Shown here one piece after another: positions 11,505 through 55,208 of a stretch of DNA of 64,000 nucleotides (positions are counted from its first letter, which is position 1; every line of letters begins with the position of its first letter). The notes beneath the pieces were generated by a model, which was not told the origin of the DNA, made no database searches, and saw only the letters and a program-made list of their open reading frames with translations. The DNA comes from Candidatus Aminicenantes bacterium. GTDB lineage: Bacteria; Acidobacteriota; Aminicenantia; Aminicenantales; JAFGAV01. A program made the position numbers and the translations under genes. Where the stretch lies: assembly GCA_963705895.1 (NCBI GenBank), contig OY970122.1, positions 1,270,075 through 1,334,074 on the forward strand, written 5' to 3'.

Positions 11505-11653
11505 TCTGTTTTTTGAGGTGCGAAAAGTGCGGTATTCATTGGACTTTTGGCACGGAACGAAGTGGATGTGATGTCCAGCGCATGGACGCCTGACCTGAAG
11601 AGCATCGAAGGGACAAGAAGGCGGATGTCTGCGGCGGGGTTTTGCCAGCATTT

Positions 11654-11851: not shown

Positions 11852-11856
11852 CACGG

Positions 11857-13257: not shown

Positions 13258-13302
13258 CGTTGTCCCTTGCCTGGTCCGGCCGGGGTCTTGACAGAGGGGG
13301 GA

Positions 13303-13829: not shown

Positions 13830-13861
13830 GGTTACCTCACCCTATGATGGCATTCCCCCCC

Positions 13862-13890
13862 TTGACATTTCAATTGAAACCTAGTACAGT
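13862..13890 (+). promoter_or_regulatory. sigma70-type promoter with embedded 12-bp palindrome, driving the 234-aa gene
   Basis: TTGACA (13862-13867), a 17-nt spacer, then TACAGT (13885-13890). The spacer contains the perfect palindrome TTTCAATTGAAA (13868-13879). The ATG at 13902 lies only 11 nt after the -10 element. Confidence 0.55.
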
Positions 13891-13901
13891 ACTACACACA
13901 A

Positions 13902-14606: not shown

Positions 14607-14637
14607 TGTCGATCGCCGCATCCCGGGCCAGTAAGTA

Positions 14638-14663
14638 CCTTTCGTGTCACCTTTCGTGTTGAG
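14638..14663 (+). repeat. phased CCTTTCG repeat pair (CCTTTCGTGTCACCTTTCGTGTTGAG), right arm
   Basis: Two CCTTTCG units 12 nt apart, 116 nt inside the tRNA-proximal att repeat. The second unit plus TGTTGAG is identical to the left-arm copy. Confidence 0.55.
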
Positions 14664-14778
14664 GGCTGAAACCAGCGTTTTTTGATGTATTTTTGCTCCA
14701 TTGACCTTGTGCAAAAAGGGAGCGGTGAGCCTGGTCCTAGGCTCTCTTATTTTCTGGATCTACACAGCAGATTTGGAA

Positions 14779-14864
14779 TGCCGGAGGAGGGAATCGAACC
14801 CACACCCGTGTTGCCACAGACTGGATTTTGAGTCCAGCGCGTCTGCCAGTTCCGCCACTCCGGC
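14779..14864 (-). tRNA. tRNA-Leu (anticodon CAA)
   Basis: 86 nt: GCCGGAGTGGCGGAACTGGCAGACGCGCTGGACTCAAAATCCAGTCTGTGGCAACACGGGTGTGGGTTCGATTCCCTCCTCCGGCA. It has a 7-bp acceptor, a CT-CAA-AA anticodon loop, a long variable arm, and no encoded CCA. Confidence 0.9.
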
Positions 14865-14950
14865 GCGGGAACATTATTAGCATTTTCGGCAGGAGGGGTC
14901 AAGGGAAGTGGATTTAAATGGCAACACCTATTTGATTTTTAAGACGATTT

Positions 14951-15979
14951 TTGGTACAAACTAAGACTACCCCCGTGGATAAAGAAACACAAAAGCTCCT
15001 GGACATCGTGGACCGCTTCCGCGGCAAGAAGATCGTGGTCTGGGGCGATTTCATCCTCGACGCCTATCTCCTCGGCACGACGCGCCGCGTCTCGCGCGAA
15101 GCCCCTGTCCTCATCCTGAGATACTCGAGCTCGGAGTTCTCCCTGGGCGGCGCCGGGAACGCCCTCCAAAACCTGTGGTCGCTCGGGGCCGCTCCCCTGC
15201 CCGTGGGCCTCGTCGGCGCCGACGAATCAGGCGATAATATCCTGAACTTTCTCAAAACCCGCCACATTCCCACATCCGGGCTGATAGTCCGCCGCGGCCA
15301 TCAGACGCCGGTCAAGACCCGCGTCCTGGCCGGGGAAGAAAACACGCGAAAACAGCAGATCCTCCGCATCGACCGCGAAAGCAACGCGCCCCAGACAACG
15401 GAATTCCAACGGGAGATAAGGTCCCGCCTCCTCAAGGCGCTCGCCCACGCCGACGCTCTTCTCATCTCGGACTACAATTACCTCGCCGCCCAGCCTGAGG
15501 TTTTTCACGTACTCGAGCCGGCTCTCCGCCGATTGAAGATCCCCGTTTCCCTTGATTCACGCTTTCGCCTCCTCGAGTTTCCCGGAGTGACCATCGCCAC
15601 GCCCAACGAGCCCGAGGTCGAGGCCGCGCTGGCCGTCGAGATCGGCGGGCGCCCTGAACCCCTTCTGGCCGCCGGACGGACCATCCTCGCCCGCCTCCAC
15701 TCCCCTGCCCTGCTCATCACCCGCGGCTCGCGCGGGATGGCCCTCTTCGAGCGCGGGGCCAAACCCCGGCTCATCCCGGTCCACGGCACGACCGACATCG
15801 TGGACGTGACCGGCGCCGGCGACACGGTCATCAGCGTTTTGACCCTGGCCCTGGCCTGCGGCGCGACCTACGAGCAGGCGACTCTTCTGGCCAACCATGC
15901 CGGCGGGATCGTGGTCATGAAAAAGGGCACCGCGGTCCTGACCGCCGACGAACTCAAAGCGTCCGTGATCGAATCGTGA
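14951..15979 (+). CDS. hldA: D-glycero-beta-D-manno-heptose-7-phosphate kinase (RfaE domain I, PfkB family)
   Basis: DRFRGKKIVVWGDFILDAYLLGTTRRVSREAPVLIL ... DIVDVTGAGDTVISVL are PfkB/HldE kinase motifs. TTG start is uncertain. Confidence 0.8.
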   Translation: MVQTKTTPVDKETQKLLDIVDRFRGKKIVVWGDFILDAYLLGTTRRVSREAPVLILRYSSSEFSLGGAGNALQNLWSLGAAPLPVGLVGADESGDNILNFLKTRHIPTSGLIVRRGHQTPVKTRVLAGEENTRKQQILRIDRESNAPQTTEFQREIRSRLLKALAHADALLISDYNYLAAQPEVFHVLEPALRRLKIPVSLDSRFRLLEFPGVTIATPNEPEVEAALAVEIGGRPEPLLAAGRTILARLHSPALLITRGSRGMALFERGAKPRLIPVHGTTDIVDVTGAGDTVISVLTLALACGATYEQATLLANHAGGIVVMKKGTAVLTADELKASVIES

Positions 15980-18933: not shown

Positions 18934-18976
18934 TCACCAAGGCTTGGGGGTAAATAGGGAGGGGGAAAACGCAAAG

Positions 18977-20665
18977 CTAGATTCGGTAGATATCTCCGGA
19001 ATAGTAGTAGCGCAGAGCCCTGGGGGCTTTGGATCGGCTCCTGGCCAGGTCCATCTGCTTCTTGACATCCTCGGTCATCCTCTTGAATTCGAATTGGTAA
19101 TCCGAGAGAGCTTTCGGCATGGGTTTCATCCGATCATCGCCCGTGGCGCCCGGCGCCCTCGAAAAGAATTCATCCGGAATTCCATAGAATCCCTGGCTCT
19201 CTTCCTCTCCGACTTCCACATCGGCGCTCATGGGCTTTTTGTCCCGCAGGAATTCGACCTTGATCTTGTCGCCCTTCTTCTTTTCCCGAAGAATGGCGCC
19301 CAATTCGCTCACGGACTGGATCCGCTTGCCGTCGGCCTTGAAGATCACGTCGCCGACCTTGAGTCCGGCTTTCTGGGCGGGGCTGTCCTCGGTGAATTGG
19401 TTGACGAGCAGGCCGACTCCATCCTTCAAGCCGAAGAACTCGCCCAATTCTCTGGTCGTCTGGGAGATGTAGAGCCCGACGAATTTTCGCTTTTCCCAAA
19501 CCATGTCGGGCGGCATCGGGCGGGGCATGGGAGCGATTTTGGGCTGATCGCCCCTGGGCGGTCGCGGAGTCGCGGGCGGCAGGGGACCTTTATCGGGGAG
19601 CGGCGCTGGAGCGTTAAAAAGCTGGGGGAAAGAGCGTTCGATCTCAAGCCGGGCGTCCTCCCCCGAGTAATTCCCGAGCTTGACCTTGACGTCCATGGTT
19701 TTTCCGCCGCGCAGGATCTGCAGGGTGATGTCCTTGCCGGGCTTTCGCATACGGATCTCCGAGGACAAGATGCCCGGACCGGTGATGGCCTTGCCGTCGA
19801 GCTTGAGGATGATATCCCCTTCCTGAAGCTTGGCCAGGGAAGCCGGGCTATCGTCCTCGACGTCCGAGATCACGGCTTGACCCTGGTCGCTCTCTTGAAC
19901 GCTCACGCCGAGCCAGCCGCGTTCGACCTTGCCCTTGTCCCTGATCTGGGTATAGACATCCTTGACGATATCGATGGGAACGGCCTGGGCCATGCCCGAG
20001 GCGGGAGCTTCGGCCCGGTTGAAGGCGTAGCCGGAGCCGACCACCTGCTGTTCGTGGAACTCAAAGACCACGGGGTTGTCCTCGAAATAGGCCCCCCGCA
20101 GAAGGCCGATCATCTGACCGTCCTTGTTGACCACCGGGCTGCCGCTCGACCCGCGCACGACCCAGACGTTGAGCCGCAGCCAATCGGAAGCCAGGGAGCT
20201 GATGATGCCTTGGGTCACGGCCGGCGTGTTTTCGGGCGAGAGGCCGACGACGCCGACCCAGGTGCCCGGGGCCAGGCCTTCGACCTTGCCCATGACGACG
20301 GCCGCGGGCAATTTTTCCTTGGCCTTGAGCACGGCCACGCGCGTCTGGCCGTCCAGACCTACGAAATCGGCCTTGATCCGCTTGCCGTCCATGGTGATGA
20401 CCGTGATCTCTTCGTCCCTGGGCGAGATGAGGGCCGTGGTGATGATGTAACCGTCCTTGTCCACGACGACGCCCGTGGCGATCTTTCGCATGACGTTGCG
20501 GGCCTCAACCCTGACCACGGCCGGATAGACGAGCTTGGCCACCGCATCGATGCCCTTATCATCCAGCGGGGCGCCGGGGTCATAGGCCGGACGGGCGGCC
20601 AGGCTCACGAACAACAGCGGCACGAGGGCCGCCATCATGAGGGTTCGACTGATTGTGTTGCGCAT
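18977..20665 (-). CDS. HtrA/DegP-like protein with two PDZ domains; catalytic His and Asp apparently missing
   Basis: Has a signal peptide and a trypsin-like fold with GSSGSPVV (Ser motif). Where HtrA has TN-x-HV and D-x-AVLK, this protein reads ITTALI and TRVAVLK. Two PDZ domains are present (DSPASLAKLQEGDIILKLDG, DSPAQKAGLKVGDVIFKADG). Confidence 0.75.
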   Translation of the reverse strand: MRNTISRTLMMAALVPLLFVSLAARPAYDPGAPLDDKGIDAVAKLVYPAVVRVEARNVMRKIATGVVVDKDGYIITTALISPRDEEITVITMDGKRIKADFVGLDGQTRVAVLKAKEKLPAAVVMGKVEGLAPGTWVGVVGLSPENTPAVTQGIISSLASDWLRLNVWVVRGSSGSPVVNKDGQMIGLLRGAYFEDNPVVFEFHEQQVVGSGYAFNRAEAPASGMAQAVPIDIVKDVYTQIRDKGKVERGWLGVSVQESDQGQAVISDVEDDSPASLAKLQEGDIILKLDGKAITGPGILSSEIRMRKPGKDITLQILRGGKTMDVKVKLGNYSGEDARLEIERSFPQLFNAPAPLPDKGPLPPATPRPPRGDQPKIAPMPRPMPPDMVWEKRKFVGLYISQTTRELGEFFGLKDGVGLLVNQFTEDSPAQKAGLKVGDVIFKADGKRIQSVSELGAILREKKKGDKIKVEFLRDKKPMSADVEVGEEESQGFYGIPDEFFSRAPGATGDDRMKPMPKALSDYQFEFKRMTEDVKKQMDLARSRSKAPRALRYYYSGDIYRI

Positions 20666-20680
20666 TTGGGGATGTGCCTC

Positions 20681-21079
20681 CTAATACCTGATATTGCCGT
20701 ATGTTCCGCTGTCGGAAACTTGTTCCAAGATATAAACGGTGGACGTATCGCCGGAGATGTTCCGGACTTCGCGCCCGTAATCGACGGAGTCCATGACGGG
20801 GACCACCCTGCCTTGAGCCGGACCCGACTCGAAGCCCGCCGGGGACGTTGATGTCACGCGCCCGGGCCTCAAAAGGAAGACCACGTTGACCAGGACCAGA
20901 CAAACAAGGAGCGCCGCCAGGCCACCGGCCCAGTAGAGTCTCGGACGAACGGGGCGGACCTTGATGGACCGGGCCCCGGACTTGACGTCATGGAGACGGG
21001 CCAGGACCATCCCCTCGAAACCGGGAGGGGCTTTGACCTTGTTCAGGGTGTGCCTCAAATCAAGCTCTTCCATTTTCAA
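20681..21079 (-). CDS. putative single-pass anti-sigma factor
   Basis: 132 aa with one TM (YWAGGLAALLVCLVLVNVVFLL). It overlaps the 3' end of the ECF sigma gene by 20 nt. Confidence 0.5.
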   Translation of the reverse strand: MKMEELDLRHTLNKVKAPPGFEGMVLARLHDVKSGARSIKVRPVRPRLYWAGGLAALLVCLVLVNVVFLLRPGRVTSTSPAGFESGPAQGRVVPVMDSVDYGREVRNISGDTSTVYILEQVSDSGTYGNIRY

Positions 21080-29482: not shown

Positions 29483-30616
29483 TCAGCCGAAAAGTCCCTG
29501 GCGGAACGCCAGCTCGGCGTTGAGAAGGCACGCTCCGGCCGCTCCCCGGATGATGTTATGCACCAGGGCAAAGCCGTTGAGGGAGCTCCCCTTCCCTCTG
29601 AGCCGGCCCACGGTCACGGCCATTCCCCGGGCCCGCTCGGGAGTGCCGGCCAGCGCGTCCAGCACGGGTTGAGGCCTGTCCTCTTCGGTTCTCACGAGAA
29701 CCGGACGCTCGGGAGCCGTGGGCAAGCACAGGTCCTGAGCGAGACCGCGGAAATCGGCCAGGGCTTGCCCGGCTTCACGGGCGTCGACCGGGCGATCGAA
29801 ATCCAGCCGCAGACTCAGGAGATGTCCGTCGCGTACGGGAACCCGGCAGCAGCTGGCGTTGACTTGAAGCTCCGCGGCCCGAATCCCGCCGCCCTCCATC
29901 TGACCCAGGATCTTGCGGGATTCGCGGGCCATTTTGAGCTCCTCGTCCCGGATGAAAGGAATGATGTTGGCCGCGATATCCATGGCTGCGACTCCGCGTC
30001 GGCCCGCGCCCGAGATCGCCTGGAAGGTCGTGACCGTCACCGCAGCGAGGCCCAATCGCTCCAGGGGTTTGAGGACCAGGACCAGGCCCGCGGTCGAGCA
30101 GTTGGAATTGGTGACGATCGCCCCGCCGCAGGCCGAGGCCTGACGCCGAGCCAGGTCGAGATGGCCGGGGTTGATCTCCGGGATGAGAATCGGGACATCC
30201 GGGTCGAGACGACGGCTCGAAGCGTTGGAAAAGACAAAAAGGCCCCGGCGCCTCAGCTCGGGTTCGAGCCCCTCGGCTGCGGCGCCGGGCAAAGCGCAGA
30301 ACGCGACCCGGGCGCCGCCGGAGCAAAGGGCATCGCCCGAGCTGTCGAGAATAGTGAGGTCGGCGGCGGCGGGGGGAACTTCCCCGCCGATCATCCAGGA
30401 CACGGCCGAACCGTACCTCTTCCCGGCCGAGCGGGGCGATGACGCCAGGCCGACCATCTCGAAATAGGGATGGTCCTCGAGCATCCGGACAAAGTGCTGA
30501 CCGACGAGCCCCGTGGCGCCGAGCACGACGGTCTTGACCTTATTTTTCGGTGAGTTCAAGGTTGAGCCCTCCCTGCCGTGCGTCCGGCCGATCCTGTTCG
30601 GCGCGGAGTCCCCCAT
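29483..30616 (-). CDS. asd: aspartate-semialdehyde dehydrogenase
   Basis: VVLGATGLVGQHFVRML ... SNCSTAGLVLVLKPL ... SGAG. The start is uncertain. The ATG at 30616 overlaps metA by 77 nt, and a TTG at 30556 is an alternative. Confidence 0.8.
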   Translation of the reverse strand: MGDSAPNRIGRTHGREGSTLNSPKNKVKTVVLGATGLVGQHFVRMLEDHPYFEMVGLASSPRSAGKRYGSAVSWMIGGEVPPAAADLTILDSSGDALCSGGARVAFCALPGAAAEGLEPELRRRGLFVFSNASSRRLDPDVPILIPEINPGHLDLARRQASACGGAIVTNSNCSTAGLVLVLKPLERLGLAAVTVTTFQAISGAGRRGVAAMDIAANIIPFIRDEELKMARESRKILGQMEGGGIRAAELQVNASCCRVPVRDGHLLSLRLDFDRPVDAREAGQALADFRGLAQDLCLPTAPERPVLVRTEEDRPQPVLDALAGTPERARGMAVTVGRLRGKGSSLNGFALVHNIIRGAAGACLLNAELAFRQGLFG

Positions 30617-31562
30617 TCCGGCGCCCGCTCGCCGCCTCCGCCCCCCGGCCGTTCGCCTCCCGCTCGCGATCGAACGAGACGCTGTCGTGAATGAACTTGA
30701 TCCATTGGGAAAAAAATTCAGAGCCCTGGCCTTTCCAGCGATTGACCGGATGTTCGATGTCCAGGTTCTTGGGCGGCTCTACGCCCGGCTTGCCGGCTTG
30801 TAGGTCCCGCAGGTATTCCTCGACGAGCCGCCGGGCATTGTATTCCGGATGCCCCAGGTGCATTAGGTAGCGATGCTCCGCGCTTTCAAATATCGTGTAG
30901 CCCGCCTCGGCTGAGTGGGCCAGCAGGTTGATTCTTCCTTTGTCCCTTTCCTGGATCATGACCTTATCTGGAATTCCCGAGAAGCGGCTTTGCGGGCACC
31001 AGAAGACATCGTCCATCTCGCCGGTTATTCGATGCTGCGGGTCGAGGTTGCGCGTCTCGAACACGCCGAAGAGTTTTTTAGGGAAGATGACGTTGTCGAT
31101 GCCCAATTGCTTAGCCAGAGCCAGGCCCCCCCAGCATATGCCCAGAGTCGTAGGGATGTTTTCGCGGGCGTAGTCGAGAATGTGCTGGACCTCGTTCCAG
31201 TAGGTTACGGTTTCGAAGGGAATGTCTTCGACCGGAGCGCCGGTCAGGATGAGTCCGTCCAGCGGAGCCTGGGCAATCGCCTCGTCAAAATACACATAGA
31301 GGTTCTTCAGGTGCTCCCAATCGCTGCTGGTGTACTTGTGCGTTTTGAGCCGAATCCAGACGGGGTCGATTTGGAGGACCGACCTTCCCAGCGGATGCAG
31401 CAGGCTGAACTCGTAGGCCTCGGCTTTGGGCATGATGTTGAGAATGCCGATGCGCAGGGCCCGGATGTCTTCGCGCAGGGCATCTTCGGGCTCGATGCAG
31501 AGGATTCGGCGCTCCTGCAGAGCCTGACAAAGATGGTAGTTTTTCGGAACGACGATGGTCAT
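30540..31562 (-). CDS. metA: homoserine O-acyltransferase (MetA family)
   Basis: IRALRIGILNIMPKAEAYEFSLLHPLG ... LGICWGGLALA ... YLMHLGHPEY. It has a ~35-aa Arg/Gly-rich C-terminal tail. Confidence 0.85.
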   Translation of the reverse strand: MTIVVPKNYHLCQALQERRILCIEPEDALREDIRALRIGILNIMPKAEAYEFSLLHPLGRSVLQIDPVWIRLKTHKYTSSDWEHLKNLYVYFDEAIAQAPLDGLILTGAPVEDIPFETVTYWNEVQHILDYARENIPTTLGICWGGLALAKQLGIDNVIFPKKLFGVFETRNLDPQHRITGEMDDVFWCPQSRFSGIPDKVMIQERDKGRINLLAHSAEAGYTIFESAEHRYLMHLGHPEYNARRLVEEYLRDLQAGKPGVEPPKNLDIEHPVNRWKGQGSEFFSQWIKFIHDSVSFDREREANGRGAEAASGRRNGGLRAEQDRPDARQGGLNLELTEK

Positions 31563-31678: not shown

Positions 31679-33055
31679 TTAGGCTTCGGCGCCGCGGCCA
31701 GCAGACCCGGGGATGAGAGACAGGGCTTCGTCCAGGCTTTCAATGAGGTCGTCCGGATGTTCGAGCCCGATCGACAGCCGAACCAGGTCGGGCGTGACTC
31801 CACCCGACCTCTGCTGGGCTTCCGAGAGCTGGGAATGGGTCGTGCTGGCCGGGTGAAGGATCAGACTCTTGGCGTCCCCGACATTGGCCAGATGGGAAAA
31901 CAACCTGATATTGTCGATGAGCGTGACCGCGGCGTCGTGCCCGCCCTTGAGTCCGAAGACCACCATACCCCCGAACCCCTTTGTAAGAAACTTTTTAGCG
32001 GTCGCATAGGAAGGATCGCCCGGCAGGCCGGGATAGCGGACCCAGGCCACCGCGGGATGATTCTGGAGATAGCGGGCCACGCTCAACGCATTTTCGCAGT
32101 GGCGGGCCATCCGCACCGGGAGCGTTTCGAGGCCCTGGAGGAACACCCAGGCGTTGTCCGGCGAGAGGCAGGCGCCCAGGTTGCGCAGGGCCACGTTTCT
32201 GAGCCTCACGGCAAAGGGCGTGCGGGCCAGCGGCTCGGGCAGGTCGAACGCCCACCGCAGTCCATGTGCGTTGTCGTCGGGCTCGGTCAGGAGCGGATGG
32301 CGTCCCCCCTTTCCGTCGAACGTCCCGGCGTCGGTCACGGCTCCGCCGATGGCCGTCCCGTGCCCGCCCAGCCACTTGGTCAGGGAATTGATGACGATGT
32401 CCGCGCCATGGTCGATGGCCCTCAGGAGGTAGGGCGTCGTGAACGTGCCGTCCACGATGAGGGGCAGCCCGTGACGGTGGGCCGTTTCGGCCGCGGCCCG
32501 GATATCCGCAACATCGAGCGAAGGGTTGCCGATCGTTTCCACGAACAGGGCCCGGGTCGTGTCCGTCACCGCGTCCGCCAGTCGTTCCGGGTCCTTCACA
32601 TCCGCGAACTTGACCGTGATGCCCAACTTGGGCAGGATGGCGTCGAACTGGGTATAGGTCCCGCCGTAGAGGTTGCCGGCCGAAACGATATCATCGCCCG
32701 CCTGGGCGAGAGTGATGACGGCAGAGAACACGGCCGCGGTCCCGGACGCCAGGGCAATGGATGCCGCGCCGCCCTCGAGCTGAGTCAGGCGCTCCTCGAG
32801 AACCTCGGTCGTGGGGTTCGAGATCCGGGTATAAATATGACCCGGCGCTTTTAAAGCGAAAAGGTCGGCCGCATGCGCGGCGCTCTTAAAAACGTAGGAG
32901 CTGGTTCGGTAGACCGGCACGCCTCGCGACAGGGCGGCGTCGAGGGTTTGCCCGGCATGCAGGGCCAGGGTCTCAAAACGGTATCTCCCGGGAGCGGCTT
33001 TATGGCCCGCGCCGTTATCGCTGACGATGTGAGTTTTCGGGTCGGATTGCGACAC
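31679..33055 (-). CDS. metY: O-acetylhomoserine aminocarboxypropyltransferase/sulfhydrylase
   Basis: [11 protein letters not shown] ... [10 protein letters not shown] ... [16 protein letters not shown] ... [15 protein letters not shown] (PLP Lys). GTG start at 33055 with an AAGAGGAGG SD 6 nt upstream. Confidence 0.85.
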
Positions 33056-33288
33056 AATAGACCTCCTCTTAAGGTGCAGAACAAGGATAATAAGATAGGC
33101 CGCGAGATTGTTCCGGCTTGGGGTCATCCCGAATACCCGCCTCCGGCCTGGAGTGCGGCGTATTCGGGCTTCACATTATCATGCAGCCGAGCGGCTGAAG
33201 GCGGGAAAGAAAAAAACGGACGGAGGCGGACGACGACCTTTCGACCGTGTTCGTCCTCAGTTCAAAATGCGTGTCCATTTGCCGCGGA

Positions 33289-33317
33289 TTTATACCATAG
33301 AATCCGCGGGCTGTCAA
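33289..33317 (-). promoter_or_regulatory. sigma70-type promoter of the met operon leader, overlapped by a palindrome
   Basis: The minus strand reads TTGACA (33317-33312), a 17-nt spacer, then TATAAA (33294-33289). CCGCGGATT-N10-AATCCGCGG (33282-33309) straddles the -10 element. Confidence 0.6.
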
Positions 33318-33444
33318 ATGCAGTGAAAAAAAGATGTTGCGCGCCGAGCGTTTGAGCCTTCCCCTTCGGGAGCGGAGTCCGCGCCGCGGGGCAAGCGGGG
33401 GGACGCAGCTGTTTCTTTATCAATGCCGCCGTCCTCATGTATCA

Positions 33445-33452
33445 TGTATAAT
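33445..33452 (+). promoter_or_regulatory. extended -10 element (TGTATAAT) upstream of the HprK-like gene
   Basis: TG-n-TATAAT lies 27 nt upstream of the ATG at 33479. AAGAGGAGA SD is present. No good -35 element. Confidence 0.4.
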
Positions 33453-33478
33453 GAATACGGCAAGAGGAGAGTTCATCA

Positions 33479-34417
33479 ATGACGGGCGTTCGCTCACTGA
33501 GGGTCACCCTCGGCCCGCTGAAATATCTTTTAAAAGCTCACGATGGCTGGGGGCAAAGAACGATCGACGACCTCCGGCGACACGTGGCTTTTCTGACCTT
33601 TCGAGGCAAGCCGGACCGAACGTTCCACCTTCTCCGTGAACCCGCGGACGAGAGTCCGGAGGAATCCTCACAAGGAATGATCCCGCCGGAGCTCCTGGCC
33701 CTTTTGCCCGGCGGCAGTCCCCGTCTTCAATGGTCTTGCGACCTCGATACCGCGCACTCGATCACCCGGCGGCATTCGGACTTCCCCGAGTGTTTTTGGA
33801 CGTCTCGGGCCGACGCCGCGAGCGACTCCATAAGGTTTCGCCTCCCCTGGCCGCTTATTATCGAAGACATGGTCAGCCGCGGCGGAGGAGTCGTTCACGC
33901 GGGTCTGGCCGTGCGAAGAGAAGCGGCCGTCCTGTTCTCCGCCCCTTCGGGCGGAGGGAAATCCACGGCCCTGGCCAGGATCCCGGCCCCATGGAGGGTC
34001 GAGGCGGACGATGCAGCTCTTGTCTGGCCGTCCGGCCGCGGAACCGTCAAAGCCAGCCCGCTTCCGACATGGAGCGTCATGGCAGGAAGAAGCCGGATGC
34101 CGAAGGGTTTGGGCCGATGGAAGCCGGGCGATTCCTGGAGAGTTGGCGCGATCGTGGTCCTGGAAAAATCCCCGTTCTTGGAGTATTCCCCGTTTGCCCC
34201 GGCAGAGGCCGCAGCCGTTCTTTATCGGGCCCTGTCGGATCACCCGGAAAGCAGCCGGAGCCGTCACTTATTCAGGAAAGAATTCTTTGGAACAGCTTGT
34301 TCTCTCGCCAGGTCTCTGCCCGCATTCATCCTCAGATTGGGTTTGACCGACGCCTATTGGAAGCTTTTGGAAAGAGATATCAAGCAGCCCAGGGAAACCG
34401 GAAAGATCCTCGGTTGA
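33479..34417 (+). CDS. HPr-kinase C-domain-like P-loop protein (HprK-related, RiPP-cassette type)
   Basis: 312 aa. GGGVVHAGLAVRREAAVLFSAPSGGGKSTALARIPAPWRVEADDAALVWP parallels the HprK core hGvl..v.g.GvLi.G.SG.GKSe.Al.L...G..LvaDD. The N-terminal ~130 aa are unassigned. Confidence 0.65.
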   Translation: MTGVRSLRVTLGPLKYLLKAHDGWGQRTIDDLRRHVAFLTFRGKPDRTFHLLREPADESPEESSQGMIPPELLALLPGGSPRLQWSCDLDTAHSITRRHSDFPECFWTSRADAASDSIRFRLPWPLIIEDMVSRGGGVVHAGLAVRREAAVLFSAPSGGGKSTALARIPAPWRVEADDAALVWPSGRGTVKASPLPTWSVMAGRSRMPKGLGRWKPGDSWRVGAIVVLEKSPFLEYSPFAPAEAAAVLYRALSDHPESSRSRHLFRKEFFGTACSLARSLPAFILRLGLTDAYWKLLERDIKQPRETGKILG

Positions 34418-34425
34418 GATCGCGT

Positions 34426-34442
34426 CCCGGAGAGTATCCGGG
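34426..34442. terminator. hairpin between the convergent HprK-like and peptide genes
   Basis: CCCGGA-GAGTA-TCCGGG lies 9 nt after the HprK-like stop and 13 nt after the peptide stop. No U-tract on either strand. Confidence 0.35.
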
Positions 34443-34455
34443 AAATGGAGAAACC

Positions 34456-34734
34456 TTATTGGTGGACGGTCCCTCCCCCCTGACATCCGCCTCCAGCTTG
34501 AAAATGGCCGGCGTCGGTGCCGTTGGAACAGCCGGCATGCGCCAAGCCGCCAGACTGGCAACAGTGCGACGGGTCGGGACCAGTATAATCACCATAATGG
34601 CAGATGTGTCCCTCGGACCCATATCCAGATGCCCGGGGACATCCTGTCGTGCCCGCCATGCAATGCCCCAACGTCTCCGGAAGCCGACTTAGGTTGACAA
34701 TTCGAGGCTTCGACCAAGTCTTAGGATTTTTCAT
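34456..34734 (-). CDS. 92-aa Cys/His/Gly-rich peptide, candidate RiPP precursor
   Basis: ATG at 34734 with a GAGGTG SD 7 nt upstream. Sequence: MKNPKTWSKPRIVNLSRLPETL-GHCMAGTTGCPRASGYGSEGHICHYGDYTGPDPSHCCQSGGLAHAGCSNGTDAGHFQAGGGCQGGGTVHQ. It has a dedicated promoter upstream and a hairpin downstream. Confidence 0.55.
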   Translation of the reverse strand: MKNPKTWSKPRIVNLSRLPETLGHCMAGTTGCPRASGYGSEGHICHYGDYTGPDPSHCCQSGGLAHAGCSNGTDAGHFQAGGGCQGGGTVHQ

Positions 34735-34764
34735 ATGATCCCACCTCACAGCCGGAATTAAATA

Positions 34765-34793
34765 AATTTAGGCTGCGCGGGTTTGTTTGTCAA
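34765..34793 (-). promoter_or_regulatory. sigma70-type promoter dedicated to the peptide gene
   Basis: The minus strand reads TTGACA (34793-34788), a 17-nt spacer, then TAAATT (34770-34765), about 30 nt upstream of the ATG. Confidence 0.6.
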
Positions 34794-34812
34794 GTTTTTT
34801 TCATTAGTTTCG

Positions 34813-34850
34813 ATAAAAAAAATAATTGTGCTGTCCGCGTTCGGCGCGGA
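34813..34850 (-). terminator. possible terminator after the PqqD-like gene
   Basis: The minus strand forms the hairpin TCCGCG-CCGAA-CGCGGA. After 11 nt it is followed by a run of eight T residues. This spacing is non-canonical. Confidence 0.35.
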
Positions 34851-34904
34851 TTTTGCCTGCACGCTCCCAGGTAAGGCCACGCGGCCGCAAAACCGACAGC
34901 CCGA

Positions 34905-35204
34905 TCAGATCTTCTTTAACAGCTGATATTTTGAACAGGACTTTATGATCAGCGAAGCTTCCTTATTGGCTTTCGCCTCGGTCAGACGATAGTTTTTATA
35001 GATCAAGGCGCCCAACTCAGCCTCGGAAAAAACCGACGCCGAAAACCAGTCCTTCAGCAATTCCAAGAGAGCCGCAGCCGAGTTGTTGACAGTGAGAATC
35101 AGGTCCTCGGACGGCAGATAGATCAAAGTCTTCTCGCCAAAACGTTCACAGACGAAATCTGCCGCCAAACGATATCTCGGCCGCCGCTTGTTGGGAATAC
35201 CCAT
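34905..35204 (-). CDS. PqqD-family peptide chaperone (RiPP recognition element)
   Basis: 99 aa with a GAGGAGG SD. RYRLAADFVCERFGEKTLIYLPSEDLILTVNNSAAALLELLKDWFS ... SEAELGALIYKNYRLTEAKANKEASLIIKSCSKYQLL fits the PqqD beta3-alpha3 pattern. It is visibly more AT-rich than the flanks. Confidence 0.65.
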   Translation of the reverse strand: MGIPNKRRPRYRLAADFVCERFGEKTLIYLPSEDLILTVNNSAAALLELLKDWFSASVFSEAELGALIYKNYRLTEAKANKEASLIIKSCSKYQLLKKI

Positions 35205-35377
35205 GCCTCCTCATCTCCCCCATTGAGCATAGCAGAGCTCTAGCCGACAATCAAATCAGGGGCCGTCATCAGATGCGGCGTCACCGGCCTTCATCGGAAT
35301 CCTGGACACGTCCGGTGGATTCAGGTATATTAAGTCTTCTTTATTTTTCATATTTCTTTCATCAAAAAGGAGTGGAG

Positions 35378-35938
35378 ATGAGCAAAACACAGGAGAATCT
35401 GCTCAAGGCTTTTGCGGGAGAATCCATGGCCCGCAACAAATATACCTACTTCGCCGAGCGCGCTCGGAAAGAGGGCTACGAGTGGATCGCCCAGGTCTTC
35501 GAGGAAACCGCCGGCAACGAGAGGGCTCACGCCCAGCGCGAGTTCGAGCTGATGAAGGACCGGGTCGAGATGACCAACACATACGATATCCATTCCATGG
35601 GCTCCACTTTGGAGAATCTGAAACAGGCCGCCGCGGGCGAGAACTACGAGTGGAAGAGCATGTACCCGGATTTCGAAAAGGCCGCCCGCCAGGAGGGCGA
35701 AAAGCTCATCGCCGAGGTGTTCAAGCAGACCGGGGAAGTCGAAGAAAAGCACGAAGAACGCTATCTGAAGCTGGCCAAGAAGCTGGAATCCGGCCACATG
35801 TTCAAATCCGAGAGCGCGGAAACCGAATGGAAATGCCTGAACTGCGGATATGTCCATAAGGGCAAGGAAGCACCCAAGGTCTGCCCCTCGTGCGCCAAAC
35901 CCCAGGGCTTCTACATGCAGCTCGGCTTCGTCCGCTGA
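35378..35938 (+). CDS. rbr: rubrerythrin
   Basis: Diiron four-helix motifs (ENLLKAFAGESMARNKY, ETAGNERAHAQ, AAAGENYEW, EVEEKHEERY) plus a C-terminal rubredoxin knuckle pair CLNCG ... CPSC. Confidence 0.9.
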   Translation: MSKTQENLLKAFAGESMARNKYTYFAERARKEGYEWIAQVFEETAGNERAHAQREFELMKDRVEMTNTYDIHSMGSTLENLKQAAAGENYEWKSMYPDFEKAARQEGEKLIAEVFKQTGEVEEKHEERYLKLAKKLESGHMFKSESAETEWKCLNCGYVHKGKEAPKVCPSCAKPQGFYMQLGFVR

Positions 35939-49067: not shown

Positions 49068-49517
49068 TCAGGTGTTGCCCGGAGTAGCCTCGGGAGTCGA
49101 CCCTGAGGACGGCGCGCCCGCTTCGGGCTTGGCCTTGGGCTTGATCACGGCTTTGACGAAGTCCCACTCCTTCTTTAGGTCCCAGCGGCTGAAGACCGAG
49201 ATCTCGAAGAGCTGGTCGATGTCCATGGCCTTGGGGGTCGTGGGGCAGGAATCAACGCATTGGGCACAATGGATGCAGCGGTCGTTATGGATGATCATCC
49301 GGAACTTCTTGTCGGCGTCGCTCAAGGTCGATATCTCGATGGCTTCGGCCGGGCAATCCCGCTCGCAGGCCCGGCAGACGATGCACAGCTCAGGGCGGAG
49401 GAAGGGCGTCCCGCGAAAGTCCTTGGGCACCTCCAGCTTTTTGAACGGATAATCCACCGTGGCCGGTTTCTTGAAGAGATGCCGGAGCAGCTCCGGAAGG
49501 AAGGGCGCGATTTTCAT
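49068..49517 (-). CDS. hydrogenase 2x[4Fe-4S] subunit (NuoI/HycF/MbhN-like)
   Basis: CIVCRACERDCP and CIHCAQCVDSCP. ATGA overlap with the upstream gene. Confidence 0.8.
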   Translation of the reverse strand: MKIAPFLPELLRHLFKKPATVDYPFKKLEVPKDFRGTPFLRPELCIVCRACERDCPAEAIEISTLSDADKKFRMIIHNDRCIHCAQCVDSCPTTPKAMDIDQLFEISVFSRWDLKKEWDFVKAVIKPKAKPEAGAPSSGSTPEATPGNT

Positions 49518-50485
49518 AGGACGAATCCCTTGAGTAAGATGACGACGAGAAGCTGGAGGACGGCCAGAGGGGCCAGGTACTTCCAGGCGAAGCTGACCAC
49601 CTGGTCGATCCGGATGCGCGAGGTCAGGGCCCGGATCAAGGACAGGAGGAAGATCACGAACAGGGTCTTGATCACGAACCAGACCAGGCCCAGGAGGACT
49701 CCTCCGGGGAAGCCGCCCAGGAAGACCGCGGCCAGCAATCCGCTGCCGGCAACCATTTCCACGTCGATCATCAGCCGGAAGAGGGCCAGCTTCTTGCCCG
49801 AGTATTCGGTCAGAGTCCCGCCCACGATCTCGGTCTCGGCGTGGGGGATGTCGAAGGGCGTCCGCTCGAGCTTGGCCTGCAGACAGATGACGGCGATCAC
49901 GAACCCGAGAAGATTCGGCAGGAGCAGGAGGGGCTTGTGCTGGAAGAATCGGGCGATCTCCGCCATGCGCCAGCTGCCGGCCATGACGGCCGGGCTGAGG
50001 ACCGCCAGGAACAGCGGAACTTCGTAGCCGAAGAGCATGGTCAGGACCCTGGCTCCGCCGATGGTCGAGAAGAAGCTGGTCGAGGACCAGGCGGCCAGGA
50101 ACAGAACGAGAGTCGGCAGGCTGAGGATGTAAAGAAGGACGATGATGTCGCCCGAGAACGAGGTGAAGCTGGGTACGACCGGGTCGAAGTGCCAGACCGG
50201 CAGGAGGAGCATGGCCGTCGAGGCGATGGCCAGGCCGAAGATGGGCAGGGCGTTGAACAAGCCCTTGTCCGCAAGTTCCGGAACGATGTCCTCTTTGGCC
50301 AGCAGCTTGACGATGTCCGCCACGGGCTGGAGCAGGCCGAACCGTCCGGTATGGGTCGGTCCCATCCGGTTCTGGAGACGGGCGAAGACCTTGCGGTCGA
50401 ACCATTCGGCGAAGGTGGAATAGACGAAGAGGAAGATGAAGCCGGGATAGACGAGCAGGTAGAGGATCGTTTTCAGAATGGCCAT
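49514..50485 (-). CDS. membrane subunit NuoH/HycD/MbhM-like
   Basis: RKVFARLQNRMGPTHTGRFGLLQPVADIVKLLAKED. 8 TM helices. Confidence 0.85.
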   Translation of the reverse strand: MAILKTILYLLVYPGFIFLFVYSTFAEWFDRKVFARLQNRMGPTHTGRFGLLQPVADIVKLLAKEDIVPELADKGLFNALPIFGLAIASTAMLLLPVWHFDPVVPSFTSFSGDIIVLLYILSLPTLVLFLAAWSSTSFFSTIGGARVLTMLFGYEVPLFLAVLSPAVMAGSWRMAEIARFFQHKPLLLLPNLLGFVIAVICLQAKLERTPFDIPHAETEIVGGTLTEYSGKKLALFRLMIDVEMVAGSGLLAAVFLGGFPGGVLLGLVWFVIKTLFVIFLLSLIRALTSRIRIDQVVSFAWKYLAPLAVLQLLVVILLKGFVL

Positions 50486-51675
50486 ACCGCATCCTTTTTC
50501 AATGGGGCTTTTCGGGCGCGCTCCTGGGCCATGGCCCGCAGCTGGCTCATCGTCACGACGCTCTCTTCCCCGCTTCGGGCGCTGACCAGAGTGACCGTCC
50601 GCTCGGCGCAGCAGATACAGGGGTCGATGGCGGCGAAGATCAGGGGGATGTCGGCTATGAACCCGGACTTGAGCATCTCGATGGTGGCCGCGTAGTTGCC
50701 CAGGGTCGGGGCCCGAACCTTAAGACGCTCGGGTTTGTCCGTTCCGTTGGCCTTGAGGTAATGAATGTTCTCCCCGCGGGGGGCCTCGTAGCGGCCGATG
50801 GCCTCGCCCGGCTTGGCCCGCCGGGGCGAACGGACCGCGACCGGTCCCGAGGGAAGGTTCTTCAGCAGGTACTCGATGATGTTGTAGGACTGGAGCAGTT
50901 CCTTGACCCGGACGACCGTCCGCCCCAGGACATCGCACGATTGGGCCGTGCACACTTCGAAGGGCACCTCGGCGTACATCCCGTAGGGGTCATCTTTGCG
51001 CACGTCGCGGGCGACGTCCGAAGCGCGGGCCGTGGGACCGACCGCGCACAGGGCCACGGCCTGCTCCTTGGACAGATAGCCCACGCCGGCCAGTCGGCCG
51101 ACAAAGGTCGGCTCGTTGGCCCCGATGTGCAGGTAATACTCGGTCCGCCGGCGGAGCAGGTCCAAAGAATCAAGGATATGCTGGCGCTGCGCCTCGTCGA
51201 TGTCCCGCCGGACACCGCCCAGAGTGTTGATCGCGTAATGGACCCGGTTCCCGGATAGGACCTCGAGGATGTCCATAACCACTTCCCGGTCGCGCCAGGT
51301 GTACATGAAGAAAGAGTCGAATCCCGCCTCGTGGCCCGCGACACCCAGCCACAGGAGGTGGCTGTGGACGCGCTCCAGCTCCGCAGTCAGGTAGCGGAGA
51401 AACACGCCTCGCCGAGGCGGTTCGACCTCCAGGAGCTTTTCCGCGGCCTGGACGAAACAGCTGCTGTGCGAGTGGGAGCAGATGCCGCAGATGCGCTCGG
51501 TGAGGTAGATGTTCTGAAGGTAGGTCCTGGATTCGGCCAGCTTCTCCAGCCCGCGATGGTTATAGCCCAGGCGGATGTCGGCGTCCCGGATGACCTCCCC
51601 CTCCAGGGTCATGCGCAGGCTGATCGGCTCCTTGAGGGCCGGGTGCTGGGGTCCGATGGGGACGGTGAATTTCAT
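50473..51675 (-). CDS. group-4 [NiFe]-hydrogenase large subunit (NuoD-like, Ni-Fe ligands intact)
   Basis: L1 motif RICGICSHSH and L2 motif DPCICCAER are both present, followed by a 41-aa C-terminal extension. Confidence 0.85.
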   Translation of the reverse strand: MKFTVPIGPQHPALKEPISLRMTLEGEVIRDADIRLGYNHRGLEKLAESRTYLQNIYLTERICGICSHSHSSCFVQAAEKLLEVEPPRRGVFLRYLTAELERVHSHLLWLGVAGHEAGFDSFFMYTWRDREVVMDILEVLSGNRVHYAINTLGGVRRDIDEAQRQHILDSLDLLRRRTEYYLHIGANEPTFVGRLAGVGYLSKEQAVALCAVGPTARASDVARDVRKDDPYGMYAEVPFEVCTAQSCDVLGRTVVRVKELLQSYNIIEYLLKNLPSGPVAVRSPRRAKPGEAIGRYEAPRGENIHYLKANGTDKPERLKVRAPTLGNYAATIEMLKSGFIADIPLIFAAIDPCICCAERTVTLVSARSGEESVVTMSQLRAMAQERARKAPLKKDAVWPF

Positions 51676-52148
51676 GATGTCTTCCCTCCGGGAATCTTCT
51701 CCTCGGGCCGGACGAACGTCCAATCCTTGCGGAGGGGATATTGACCCTCCGGCCAGTCATCGGGCAGGACCAGGCGTCTCGGGTCGGGGATGTTGTCGAC
51801 CACAATCCCGAACATGTCCTGGAGTTCGCGTTCGTAGAGGATGGCGCCGGGGATGACCCCGCAGATCGACTCGACGTGCGGGCTGGCCCTGGGAATCCGG
51901 GTTCGCACGTTGAGGTTTGTGTATTCGTTGGCCAGATGATAGATGATCTCAAAATTCTCGCCCAGGTCCACCCCGCTGATGGTGGCCAGGTAGGTGAATC
52001 CCAGGGAATTTTTGAGCACGGCCAGGGACGCCGTCAAGTTCCCGGGCTCGACCCGGCAGAAGATGCGGCGGAGGGAAAGGTTGGTGACGTCCCCGACCTC
52101 CTCGCCCAGGAGGGCCGTGATGCGTTCCATTATCTGCGCGTCATTCAT
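51672..52148 (-). CDS. NuoC/MbhK-like subunit
   Basis: ERELQDMFGIVVDNIPDPRRLVLPDDWPEGQYPLRKDW. Confidence 0.75.
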   Translation of the reverse strand: MNDAQIMERITALLGEEVGDVTNLSLRRIFCRVEPGNLTASLAVLKNSLGFTYLATISGVDLGENFEIIYHLANEYTNLNVRTRIPRASPHVESICGVIPGAILYERELQDMFGIVVDNIPDPRRLVLPDDWPEGQYPLRKDWTFVRPEEKIPGGKTS

Positions 52149-52161
52149 GGCAACCTCGATC

Positions 52162-52581
52162 CTAAAGCTTCCCCAGGAGCTTGACCACGCCCTCCAGGAT
52201 GGCGTCGGGCCGGGCCGGGCATCCGGGCACATAAACGTCCACGGGCAGGACCTGGTCGATCCCGCCCATGACATTATAGGCCCCCCGGTAAACACAGCCC
52301 GACATGGCACAGGCCCCGACGGCGATGACGAACTTGGGGTCGGGCGTCTGCTCATAGATGCGAATGAGCCGGTCCTTGATCTGCCGGGTGGCCGGGCCGG
52401 TGGCGATGATGACGTCAGCGTGACGGGGCGTGGCCTTGAGCAGAACCCCGAAGCGCTCCACGTCGAAGCGCGGGGTCAGGGCGGCCACGATCTCGATATC
52501 GCAGGCGTTGCAGGCCCCTGAGTTCAGATGAAGGATCCAGGGGGATTTCTTGCGGGACCAGCGGACGATCTTTTCAAGCAT
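52162..52581 (-). CDS. hydrogenase small subunit (NuoB/MbhJ-like)
   Basis: SGACNAC ... VGACAMSG ... VPGCPARP are the 4Fe-4S cluster ligands. Confidence 0.8.
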   Translation of the reverse strand: MLEKIVRWSRKKSPWILHLNSGACNACDIEIVAALTPRFDVERFGVLLKATPRHADVIIATGPATRQIKDRLIRIYEQTPDPKFVIAVGACAMSGCVYRGAYNVMGGIDQVLPVDVYVPGCPARPDAILEGVVKLLGKL

Positions 52582-52586
52582 CGCAA

Positions 52587-52919
52587 CTAGCTCCTTGTGA
52601 TCAGGGCCACGACGGACAGGAAGATCATGACCAGGTAGATGAGGCTGAAGAAGACGATCTTGCCCGCCGGAACCGTGGCCATGACCAGGGCGGCTACGTG
52701 CATGATGGTAAAGAAGAGGGCGATGAAGAAGAATAGGCGGTAGCCCCACTGGAGCTTGACTCCGGGGATATCCTCACCGCAGGCGTACGTCTTGAGCTTG
52801 CCGCCGACCCCTTTGAGCTTGGGAGCCAGAGCGCCGCCCAGGCCGTAGATGGCAAAGGCCAGGCCGAGGAAAACGAGGAAGCCGACCGGCGGCGACAGCA
52901 GAAAATCGATCTTGCTCAT
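52587..52919 (-). CDS. NuoA-like membrane subunit
   Basis: 110 aa, 3 TM helices. YACGEDIP ... YRLFFFIALFFTIMHVAALV parallels NuoA Y-E-C-G ... F-Y-L-V-A-x-L-F. Confidence 0.55.
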   Translation of the reverse strand: MSKIDFLLSPPVGFLVFLGLAFAIYGLGGALAPKLKGVGGKLKTYACGEDIPGVKLQWGYRLFFFIALFFTIMHVAALVMATVPAGKIVFFSLIYLVMIFLSVVALITRS

Positions 52920-52922
52920 GGC

Positions 52923-53231
52923 TCACCCTTTCAGCTTGGCCAGTTTCCGGATGTCCAGGCTCTTCGTGTGGCGGTGGATGTTGATGATGATGGCCAGGGC
53001 CGTGGCCACGACGCAGACCTCGACGACGATGAACGTCACGGCCAAGGCCTGGGCGGTAAGGATGGTCTTCTTGACGAAGCCGGTGGCCACCAGGGCCAGG
53101 CTGACGCCTTTGCCGATGACTTCGATTCCGATGAAAAGCTTGATCAGGTTGCGCTGGGTCAGCAGACAATAGATCCCCACGAACAGCAGGACCGCGGCGA
53201 AGGCCATATAGATCAGCCAGGTGTTACTCAT
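52923..53231 (-). CDS. NuoK/MnhC-like membrane subunit
   Basis: RNLIKLFIGIEVIGKGVSLALVA ... VVEVCVVATALAII. Confidence 0.7.
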   Translation of the reverse strand: MSNTWLIYMAFAAVLLFVGIYCLLTQRNLIKLFIGIEVIGKGVSLALVATGFVKKTILTAQALAVTFIVVEVCVVATALAIIINIHRHTKSLDIRKLAKLKG

Positions 53232-53706
53232 CCTTACTCCTCTTGCGGAACAACGCCAGGACCGAAAATACTCCGGCGAAGATGATCCCGATCTGGGCCA
53301 CCAGGTCGAAGGTCCGGCCCTTCCAGAGGGCCTCGCTGAACGTGCCCCCCTCGCCGCCCGAAGCCATGGTCGGGATCCGGCCGATGAGGCCCTTCATCAC
53401 GAGCAGATCGATGGCCAGGAAGACGATGAAGAACAGGGGGAAGCCCCAGGATGCCAGCTTGGATTCGCGCACTTCGGCGTCGGTCCGGGTCAGGGCGATG
53501 GTCACCACGAACAGGACCGTGATCAACCCGGCCACGACCGATATCTCAAAGGCGCCGATATAGGGGGCGTTCATGGTGAAGAAAAGGATACCGAGCAGGA
53601 GGCTGGCCACGGCCAGGCAGATGGCCGCCTTCAGGATATCGCGCACCAGAATGGCCGCCACGGAAAGAGCCGTCAACCCGCACAGCAGTCCGATTTGTAG
53701 TGTCAT
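53224..53706 (-). CDS. NuoJ/MnhB-like membrane subunit
   Basis: LKAAICLAVASLLLGILFFTMNAPYIGAFEISVVAGLITVLFVV parallels the NuoJ core. Confidence 0.6.
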   Translation of the reverse strand: MTLQIGLLCGLTALSVAAILVRDILKAAICLAVASLLLGILFFTMNAPYIGAFEISVVAGLITVLFVVTIALTRTDAEVRESKLASWGFPLFFIVFLAIDLLVMKGLIGRIPTMASGGEGGTFSEALWKGRTFDLVAQIGIIFAGVFSVLALFRKRSKDE

Positions 53707-53709
53707 CGT

Positions 53710-55191: not shown

Positions 55192-55208
55192 CTCTTCTCT
55201 CCTCTATC

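Follow-up and report, generated by a model that had tools for sequence, protein, structure and literature searches.

A probable reduced SynChlorMet-type cassette, conserved without its radical SAM maturases, in a lineage of Candidatus Aminicenantes

Background

A stretch of 64 kb from a Candidatus Aminicenantes contig (OY970122.1; hereafter the window) carries, between positions 33479 and 35204, three genes encoding an HprK-like P-loop protein of 312 aa, a Cys-rich peptide of 92 aa and a small PqqD-like protein of 99 aa. The closest described system is the SynChlorMet (SCM) cassette for peptides synthesized by ribosomes and modified after translation (RiPPs). It has been defined in silico by the TIGRFAMs/NCBIfam models TIGR04249 (ScmC), TIGR04250 (ScmE) and TIGR04251 (ScmF), the last two being radical S-adenosylmethionine (SAM)/SPASM enzymes that represent its defining maturases, and it is said to go back to Haft and Basu in 2011. 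The cassette is known from comparative genomics only, its product and the role of ScmC being undescribed in the literature that was found; searches on SynChlorMet, on ScmE/ScmF and on the combination of HPr kinase, PqqD and radical SAM returned nothing relevant.

HprK homologues encoded beside a precursor gene and a discrete PqqD-like RiPP recognition element (RRE) are also found in lasso peptide clusters. These kinases, of the paeninodin PadeK type, phosphorylate a Ser of the linear precursor in an ATP-dependent manner and represent the sole case in which HprK homologues have been shown by experiment to act on ribosomal peptides (PMC8498205). A pairing of an HprK-related and a PqqD-like protein has further been defined in silico as the HPr-rel-A system, which comprises the HprK-related kinase A (TIGR04352) and a PqqD family peptide chaperone (TIGR04353). 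Finally, discrete RREs such as PqqD, TfuB1, TbiB1 and those of StsC-type sactipeptides (PMC12710340) are winged-helix proteins of ca. 100 aa, as is the 99-aa protein, and their genes likewise lie beside that of the precursor; kinases are not mentioned in the RRE literature that was found.

The trio has in common with the SCM cassette an ScmC-family protein, a small PqqD-like protein and a Cys-rich precursor with leader motif and C-x-x-G repeats, as well as the gene order and convergent orientation seen in loci L030, L034, L036 and L126 (retrieved loci are designated by L numbers), which belong to clade B of the ScmC tree described below. It differs by the absence of ScmE and ScmF and of the S24/S26-like peptidase and ABC exporter of L126, by an ScmC that scores below the equivalog cutoff and falls in clade B, a sister subfamily of the canonical one, and by a precursor core that is strongly conserved and His-rich, not variable. 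The lasso kinases share with the 312-aa protein a P-loop and the company of a precursor and a discrete PqqD-like RRE, but belong to another subfamily, and the locus has no cyclase or protease and its peptide neither a C-terminal Ser nor a lasso core; kinase activity of ScmC is itself only predicted. Unlike the discrete RREs listed above, the 99-aa protein is too divergent for PF05402, and its likely client is an HprK-like protein instead of a protease, a cyclase or a radical SAM enzyme.

The trio is not a new type of system; what is novel is a conserved derivative of the SCM cassette without radical SAM enzymes. It is rather probably a reduced SCM-type RiPP cassette in which RRE, precursor and ScmC have been retained, ScmE and ScmF having been lost in the ancestor of the lineage.

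Results

Complete cassettes in relatives of the locus

An alignment of ScmC proteins was searched against genome and metagenome contigs, and hidden Markov model (HMM) searches were then run over all open reading frames (ORFs) of the retrieved loci. ScmC relatives with 33-47% identity occur in complete cassettes. In L030, an ABC exporter and a PqqD-like gene are followed by ScmE (429 bits with TIGR04250), ScmF (391.7 bits with TIGR04251; cutoff of 400 bits for both models), a Cys-rich precursor gene and a convergent ScmC gene. L034, L036 and L126 have the same layout. The fullest of these loci, L126, comes from a deltaproteobacterial metagenome-assembled genome (MAG) and comprises a window-type RRE with a classical PqqD, the pair ScmE and ScmF, a precursor of 68 aa, ScmC with an S24/S26-like peptidase, and an ABC exporter. 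In all four loci the genes of ScmE and ScmF separate the RRE gene from that of the precursor, and the window displays the same order and orientation with a 170-bp spacer in their place. The original prediction had implied an unknown three-gene system, which these relatives replace by a reduced SCM cassette; its suggested link to ScmC-type cassettes is borne out by this gene order and by the TIGR04249 and PF27840 matches given below. Relatives with the same gene order plus extra genes were found in Deltaproteobacteria, Chloroflexi and other phyla. Among the best 80 ScmE loci, which derive from Deltaproteobacteria, Chlorobi, methanogens, Anaerolineae and some Aminicenantes, the two radical SAM genes always occur together, with a ScmC homologue at 6 kb or less in ca. 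50 of the 80.

Several of the retrieved loci display further features. A signal-peptidase-I-like protein of the S24/S26 type with a 'GKSMWP' motif, a candidate leader peptidase, is encoded by a gene that overlaps the end of ScmC in the clade-B clusters L126 (8438-9139, minus strand) and L005 (3342-3704, plus strand); it scored 53 bits with TIGR02228 in L005 and matched Peptidase_S24 weakly in L126. L036 has tandem precursor genes (1285-1683 and ca. 1727-1950, minus strand) with the same leader and differing cores, located upstream of one cassette. In L011, a gene for a PF14907 (NTP_transf_5) nucleotidyltransferase (14069-15211, minus strand; E = 3e-63) adjoins the SCM-type cassette; a kinase and a nucleotidyltransferase in combination modify the lasso peptide pseudomycoidin (PMC8498205). 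The ScmC gene of this locus (9980-10914), which comes from a nanopore MAG, is split over three frames, probably by sequencing frameshifts and not as a pseudogene; its precursor gene (11426-11096) is split too. Distant HprK-like P-loop proteins having 24-31% identity to ScmC were detected in L012-L028 and L038 (Clostridia, Izemoplasmatales and others), and their genes often directly precede a radical SAM/SPASM gene (L013, L018, L027, L038), so that the pairing of the two recurs well beyond the SCM family.

Conserved absence of the maturases

The trio occurs, with all ORFs intact, in six species-level Aminicenantes lineages including the window, in which ScmC is 51-84% and the housekeeping protein Asd 62-85% identical; a NuoD-like protein of the window shares 71-82% identity with many Candidatus Aminicenantes/Saccharicenans MAGs. 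The six orthologous loci lie on contigs of up to 258 kb and share flanking synteny, with asd and aspartokinase on one side and rubrerythrin, melibiase, DUF6786 and DUF218 on the other. No ScmE (TIGR04250) or ScmF (TIGR04251) was detected within ±10 kb of any of them. Likewise, tblastn with five ScmE/ScmF proteins, the S24/S26-like peptidase, the exporter and the classical PqqD, as well as HMM searches for radical SAM proteins, found nothing in the window or within ±10 kb of the orthologous loci, the best tblastn hit of SCM radical SAM proteins in the window having E = 0.11. The CX3CX2C motif is absent from every window ORF of at least 150 aa, Pfam searches with 20 large window ORFs revealed housekeeping or phage-like functions only and no maturase, and no radical SAM remnant was found by tblastn in the 170-bp spacer. 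A lasso cyclase (Asn-synthase-like) or B2 protease was found neither among the large window ORFs nor in the syntenic loci. The claim that the 64 kb hold no lasso or radical SAM maturase is thus confirmed, and the absence is not an assembly artefact because the syntenic orthologous loci lack these genes as well. Homologous cassettes adjacent to a standard maturase, which the original prediction had raised as a case against its view, do exist outside the lineage (L030, L034, L036, L126) but never within ±10 kb in the six Aminicenantes lineages.

Ratios of dN to dS were computed for five of the lineages (L205 being left out) with Asd as housekeeping control, and ranged over 0.19-0.34 for ScmC, 0.09-0.23 for the precursor, 0.15-0.42 for the RRE and 0.17-0.28 for Asd, with dS values from 0.5 to more than 2. 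All three genes are under purifying selection in these five lineages, the values of the precursor being as low as or lower than those of Asd. From the lack of maturases within ±10 kb in six lineages and the purifying selection on all three genes it follows that the maturase-less state is real and conserved in this Aminicenantes lineage.

In a neighbour-joining tree of ScmC proteins, all members of the canonical clade A (96% bootstrap) are accompanied by radical SAM enzymes. The window protein has a nested position, its lineage being monophyletic (100%) inside clade B, whose remaining members with a visible flank also carry radical SAM genes. A single loss of the maturases is parsimonious because these enzymes occur both in the sister members and in the outgroup clade, and the tree together with the shared gene order points to one such loss. 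A search of the ScmC profile against 1.84 billion representative proteins gave 47 clusters at a threshold of E <= 1e-30 and 882 when it was set to E <= 1e-10 (50%-identity representatives), which makes clade B a small group and the ScmC superfamily one of moderate size.

The ScmC-family protein

The 312-aa protein matched TIGR04249 with E = 1.3e-26 and 93.7 bits, a score that supports a family-level assignment only, given the equivalog cutoff of 125 bits, and PF27840 ('ScmC') is precomputed on all eight of its database homologues. It had no Pfam match at E <= 1, so that PF07475 (Hpr_kinase_C) is unmatched; the library was apparently older than PF27840. Its C-terminal half is an HprK/P-like P-loop domain and its N-terminal half has no known match. 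H140, the P-loop G158-G-G-K-S-T163 and D177-D178 are invariant among the ScmC homologues aligned and correspond, in a weak alignment, to the His-Gly, Walker-A P-loop and Ala-Asp-Asp motifs of the Lactobacillus casei HprK/P (1jb1). Structure prediction with AlphaFold2 (AF2) used a 3-sequence alignment, and Foldseek returned HprK/P chains as top PDB matches of the model (E ca. 1e-4, probability 1.0), followed by PEPCK. An HprK-like P-loop protein was thus correctly announced; the more specific claim that its core is the HPr kinase C-domain stands for motifs and fold at superfamily level and falls for the PF07475 profile. As for TIGR04352 (HprK_rel_A), a family to which the original prediction had also pointed, the protein gave a weak match with E = 0.0016 and 17.6 bits compared to a cutoff of 200.

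The stand-alone recognition element

The 99-aa protein itself has no Pfam or NCBIfam match at E <= 1, PF05402 and TIGR04353 included. Its AF2 model (pLDDT 77.5) shows three or four strands followed by three helices, and ranks 1-13 of the Foldseek search in the PDB were all RRE or PqqD domains, led by TfuB1 (6jx3_B, E = 1e-3), TbiB1, PqqD (5sxy) and the CteB RRE, with TM scores of 0.55-0.65 for discrete RREs; TfuB1 was also the best PDB sequence match of the family profile (E = 0.063). Word-indexed homologue searches gave two to three sequences each for the peptide and the RRE, and further homologues were taken from the loci. Homologues of the 99-aa protein are encoded by the PqqD-like genes of L011, L030, L034, L036 and L126 (E = 4e-38 to 1e-8; tblastn 7e-7), and some of these window-type RREs reach PF05402, with 23.7 bits in L036 (cutoff 23.4), E = 2e-4 in L011 and E = 0.016 in L030. 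The proposed stand-alone RRE is therefore supported by its fold and by its homologues. The relationships of the two proteins to HprK and PqqD hold at superfamily or fold level. With TIGR04353, window-type RREs of L011 and L036 scored weakly (E ca. 1e-3, 18-20 bits with a cutoff of 35), far under the cutoff as was the 312-aa protein with TIGR04352, which indicates a distant relation to the HPr-rel-A system and not membership.

Two loci bear on the partner of this protein. In L011, a distance of 6 nt separates the window-type RRE gene from ScmC, upstream of which it lies, and the radical SAM protein is fused to a PqqD domain of its own. L126 carries, besides the window-type RRE as an additional gene, a second PqqD of the classical kind (PF05402, E = 9e-13), which overlaps ScmE. 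Because of these arrangements, the window-type RRE appears to be the partner of ScmC and not of the radical SAM enzymes, and gene context suggests that the two belong together.

The RRE gene had been described as clearly more AT-rich than its surroundings, which agrees with a GC content of 48.7% compared to 59.3% for the window. In each of the five lineages examined it lies 7-12 GC points under the gene of ScmC, so that recent horizontal transfer of the gene is not favoured; the low GC content is a stable property of the gene, with no sign of recent transfer.

The precursor peptide and its promoter

The leader of the peptide follows the family motif W-x-x-P-x-[ILM]-x-x-[LIV]-x-x-L-P-x-x-[LFM]-G, which is common to most clade-B precursors examined, those of L010, L011 and L126 differing at some positions. 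Its consensus in the lineage without radical SAM enzymes is M-K-x-x-x-x-W-[ST]-K-P-R-I-V-x-L-S-x-L-P-E-T-L-G. The core contains five C-x-x-G units (CMAG, CHYG, CQSG, CSNG and CQGG) that hold five lineage-invariant Cys. Four His of the core are invariant as well, as is a Thr-Thr right behind the first C-x-x-G; in all 15 precursors compared, x-x-G comes after the first Cys, with at least one Ser or Thr within the next two positions. Orthologues of 90-91 aa are present in the five other lineages (L044, L002, L001, L007, L205) and homologues were found in SCM loci with radical SAM genes (hmmsearch E = 6e-7 to 4e-5), with the leader motif in most and C-x-x-G repeats in all, so that the small ORF is indeed conserved at homologous loci.

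Core identity amounts to 60-85% without indels in the lineage lacking radical SAM enzymes, versus 32-47% with variable length in cassettes that have them; over the same pairs, ScmC identity is 51-84% and 30-53%, respectively. The number of His per peptide is 5-7 in the former versus 0-3 in the latter, and the invariant His adjoin Cys in GH-C, CH-GD, SH-C and VVH motifs. This richness in His of the precursors of the window, L001, L002, L007, L044 and L205 may indicate that metal binding has been gained.

The view of this ORF as a Cys-rich precursor with a promoter of its own was upheld, the gene being under the purifying selection reported above and the predicted promoter being maintained: a -35 box CTTGACAA and a TAnAnT -10 box are kept in all six lineages, the remaining spacer not being conserved. 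Ribosome-binding sites resembling GGAGG/GGATGGGG are present in the orthologous spacers.

Features of the locus and its surroundings

The three ORFs were recovered intact at the positions assigned to them in the original prediction (Table 1). The ScmC and precursor genes are convergent and separated by a gap of 38 bp.

Table 1. Coordinates of the features in and around the trio (positions in the window).
Feature	Position	Strand	Remarks
metY/HTS (left flank)	31679..33127 and 30540..31562	-	
Promoter candidate, ScmC gene	33417..33445	+	weak, sigma-70-like TTATCA-17-TATCAT; consensus scan 9/12
Putative ribosome-binding site, ScmC gene	ca. 33464..33471		GAGGAG, read from sequence
ScmC-family gene	33479..34417	+	312 aa, from ORF list
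Precursor gene	34456..34734	-	92 aa + stop from ATG; 97 aa from upstream GTG
Core	34459..34665	-	residues 24-92; Cys/His/Gly-rich
Leader	34666..34734	-	residues 1-23, MKNPKTWSKPRIVNLSRLPETLG; presumed RRE recognition sequence
RRE-precursor spacer	34735..34904	-	170 bp; site of ScmE and ScmF in full SCM cassettes
Ribosome-binding site, precursor	34740..34746	-	AGGTGGG, 5 nt 5' of ATG, read from sequence
Dedicated precursor promoter (predicted)	34765..34793	-	TTGACA-17 nt-TAAATT; scan 10/12
GC hairpin in the spacer	ca. 34833..34849		weak terminator candidate
Stand-alone RRE gene	34905..35204	-	99 aa; divergent PqqD-family winged-helix protein
Rubrerythrin (right flank)	ca. 35378..35938	+	

PADLOC gave no defence-system match, Rfam searches of positions 33000-35450 detected no RNA family at E <= 1, and the search for a riboswitch in the 350-bp intergenic region beside the ScmC gene was negative. 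The neighbour divergent from ScmC is always a homocysteine/methionine-synthesis gene, yet of differing families, namely MetY and HTS in the window, L001, L007, L044 and L205, and HcyBio and AbpE in L002-L004 and L040-L043 (e.g. L002, 8251-9624).

Elsewhere in the window, positions 1-14900 (e.g. 1899-2870, 11857-13257) look like an integrated phage or mobile element, with an N6/N4 DNA methylase, a DnaB-like/AAA_25 helicase and several large ORFs without Pfam match; its end lies near a tRNA gene (14779-14864), a possible integration site. A complex-I/Mrp-Mbh-like cluster at 49068-58507 (minus strand) encodes a 49-kDa/NiFe-hydrogenase-like and a 30-kDa protein, three Proton_antipo_M proteins and a ferredoxin-domain protein, that is, ordinary energy metabolism unrelated to the trio. 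ORFs 60284-62734 (minus strand), 18944-20851 (plus strand) and 8709-10313 (minus strand), of 816, 635 and 534 aa, have no Pfam match at E <= 1e-4 and are candidate genes.

Discussion

Proposed function of the trio

According to the reduced-cassette interpretation, the ancestor of the Aminicenantes lineage would have lost ScmE and ScmF, with the original order and orientation of the RRE, precursor and ScmC genes being kept, and the precursor would have acquired or kept a promoter of its own. The RRE would then bind the conserved leader (W-x-x-P-x-I-V-x-L-x-x-L-P-E-T-L-G) and present the peptide to ScmC, which with its intact HprK-type set (His, P-loop Lys/Ser, Asp-Asp) could phosphorylate a Ser or Thr of the core. 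The best candidate site would be the Thr-Thr right behind the first C-x-x-G, because a Ser or Thr occurs at this place in 15 of 15 precursors. ScmC and the RRE probably still act on the peptide by ATP-dependent phosphorylation without radical SAM cross-linking, for which the phosphorylation of a precursor Ser in lasso-type clusters offers an analogy only.

Since no leader peptidase or exporter gene is present, the product probably stays intracellular as a full-length modified Cys/His-rich small protein and is not a secreted natural product. Core conservation and His enrichment, together with this absence, suggest a conserved intracellular Cys/His-rich protein, which may be metal-binding and is put forward as a candidate for it. 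A stronger version, possible though somewhat doubtful, is that the trio constitutes a self-sufficient RRE-guided system with ScmC as its only enzyme, phosphorylating Ser/Thr beside the C-x-x-G Cys of a conserved, unexported Cys/His-rich and possibly metal-binding protein. By analogy with class III/IV lanthipeptides, ScmC might further drive phosphate elimination and Cys addition.

Several observations weigh against the reduced-cassette interpretation. The ScmC family profile matched HprK/P (1jb1) only marginally (E = 1.2), the AF2 model of ScmC is of low confidence (pLDDT 54), and the internal clade-B branches of the ScmC tree are poorly supported. The activity of ScmC is a predicted one, and the literature search found no paper on this protein. 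Furthermore, the region searched spans 64 kb, the contig itself having 3.3 Mb or more, other Aminicenantes genomes (L136, L138, L173, L195) carry complete cassettes with ScmE and ScmF, and the five C-x-x-G Cys, presumed targets of the radical SAM enzymes, are still invariant, as expected if these enzymes acted in trans.

Alternative explanations

The last three of these observations would fit a split cluster, in which the C-x-x-G Cys are cross-linked via the RRE, itself kept under selection, by SPASM enzymes of the ScmE/ScmF type whose genes lie at another place in the genome, and ScmC only tailors the peptide. This arrangement is unlikely. The radical SAM genes were clustered in each of the 80 ScmE loci surveyed, ca. 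50 of them with a nearby ScmC homologue, and they lie beside the precursor in every clade-B locus with a visible flank. The peptidase and exporter of the L126 type are absent too, which argues for a change of lifestyle and not for the relocation of two genes. In addition, a clade-A cassette but no trio occurs on the complete Aminicenantes chromosome OY970261.1, so the two types are not seen together, and the core has shifted to high conservation and His enrichment.

These latter features of the core would suit a repurposed metal or redox protein, the former precursor now being an intracellular metal binder of the Cys5/His4 type with ScmC and the RRE as its chaperone or regulator (e.g. NTP-dependent loading, phospho-control). 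The strongly conserved core contrasted with that of cassettes having radical SAM enzymes, the additional His with their invariant motifs next to Cys, the lack of an exporter or leader peptidase and the strong conserved promoter predicted for the precursor are all compatible with it. However, metal binding is only deduced from residue composition, and the leader motif matches that of true precursors in its degree of conservation, in keeping with enzymatic modification guided by the RRE. We hold this version to be quite improbable as a separate explanation; it overlaps and is compatible with the reduced cassette.

A decaying remnant, non-functional after deletion of the maturases, might be suspected from the loss of four ancestral cassette components. 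The probability of this is very low, the three ORFs being intact in six lineages that are not near-identical strains, with conserved promoter and ribosome-binding site and with dN/dS values that resemble those of Asd (dS from 0.5 to beyond 2) and rule out a pseudogene or relic.

A lasso-type cluster with a precursor kinase as for paeninodin, its cyclase and protease lying outside the window, has a negligible probability: although an HprK-like protein with a discrete PqqD-like RRE is the combination of phosphorylated lasso clusters (PMC8498205) and lasso B1 proteins are the top structural matches of the RRE, the reading is ruled out by the gene context of the homologues and by core features, since the 312-aa protein belongs to the ScmC family and not to the lasso kinases, the more complete relatives all have SPASM enzymes and no lasso cyclases, the Thr(-2) rule would give a core starting with GHCMAGTTG that lacks Asp/Glu at positions 7-9, a C-terminal Ser is missing from the precursor and the large window ORFs include none of the Asn-synthase-like type.

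Implications for the ScmC family

If the trio is a reduced SCM cassette, the lineage represents a natural deletion experiment in which two radical SAM enzymes have been removed and ScmC, one RRE and the precursor kept. ScmC and the divergent RRE would then appear to work on the precursor as a functional module, with no need for radical SAM chemistry, and three genes are few enough for direct reconstitution of the role of ScmC. For genome mining, the locus is a warning that an RRE and a precursor without known maturase can be the derived state of a known cassette. It is also a possible case of a RiPP precursor becoming a conserved intracellular Cys/His-rich small protein. Should the trio prove self-sufficient, it would define the function of the whole ScmC family and would represent a RiPP pathway turned into a housekeeping system for the maturation of a small protein.

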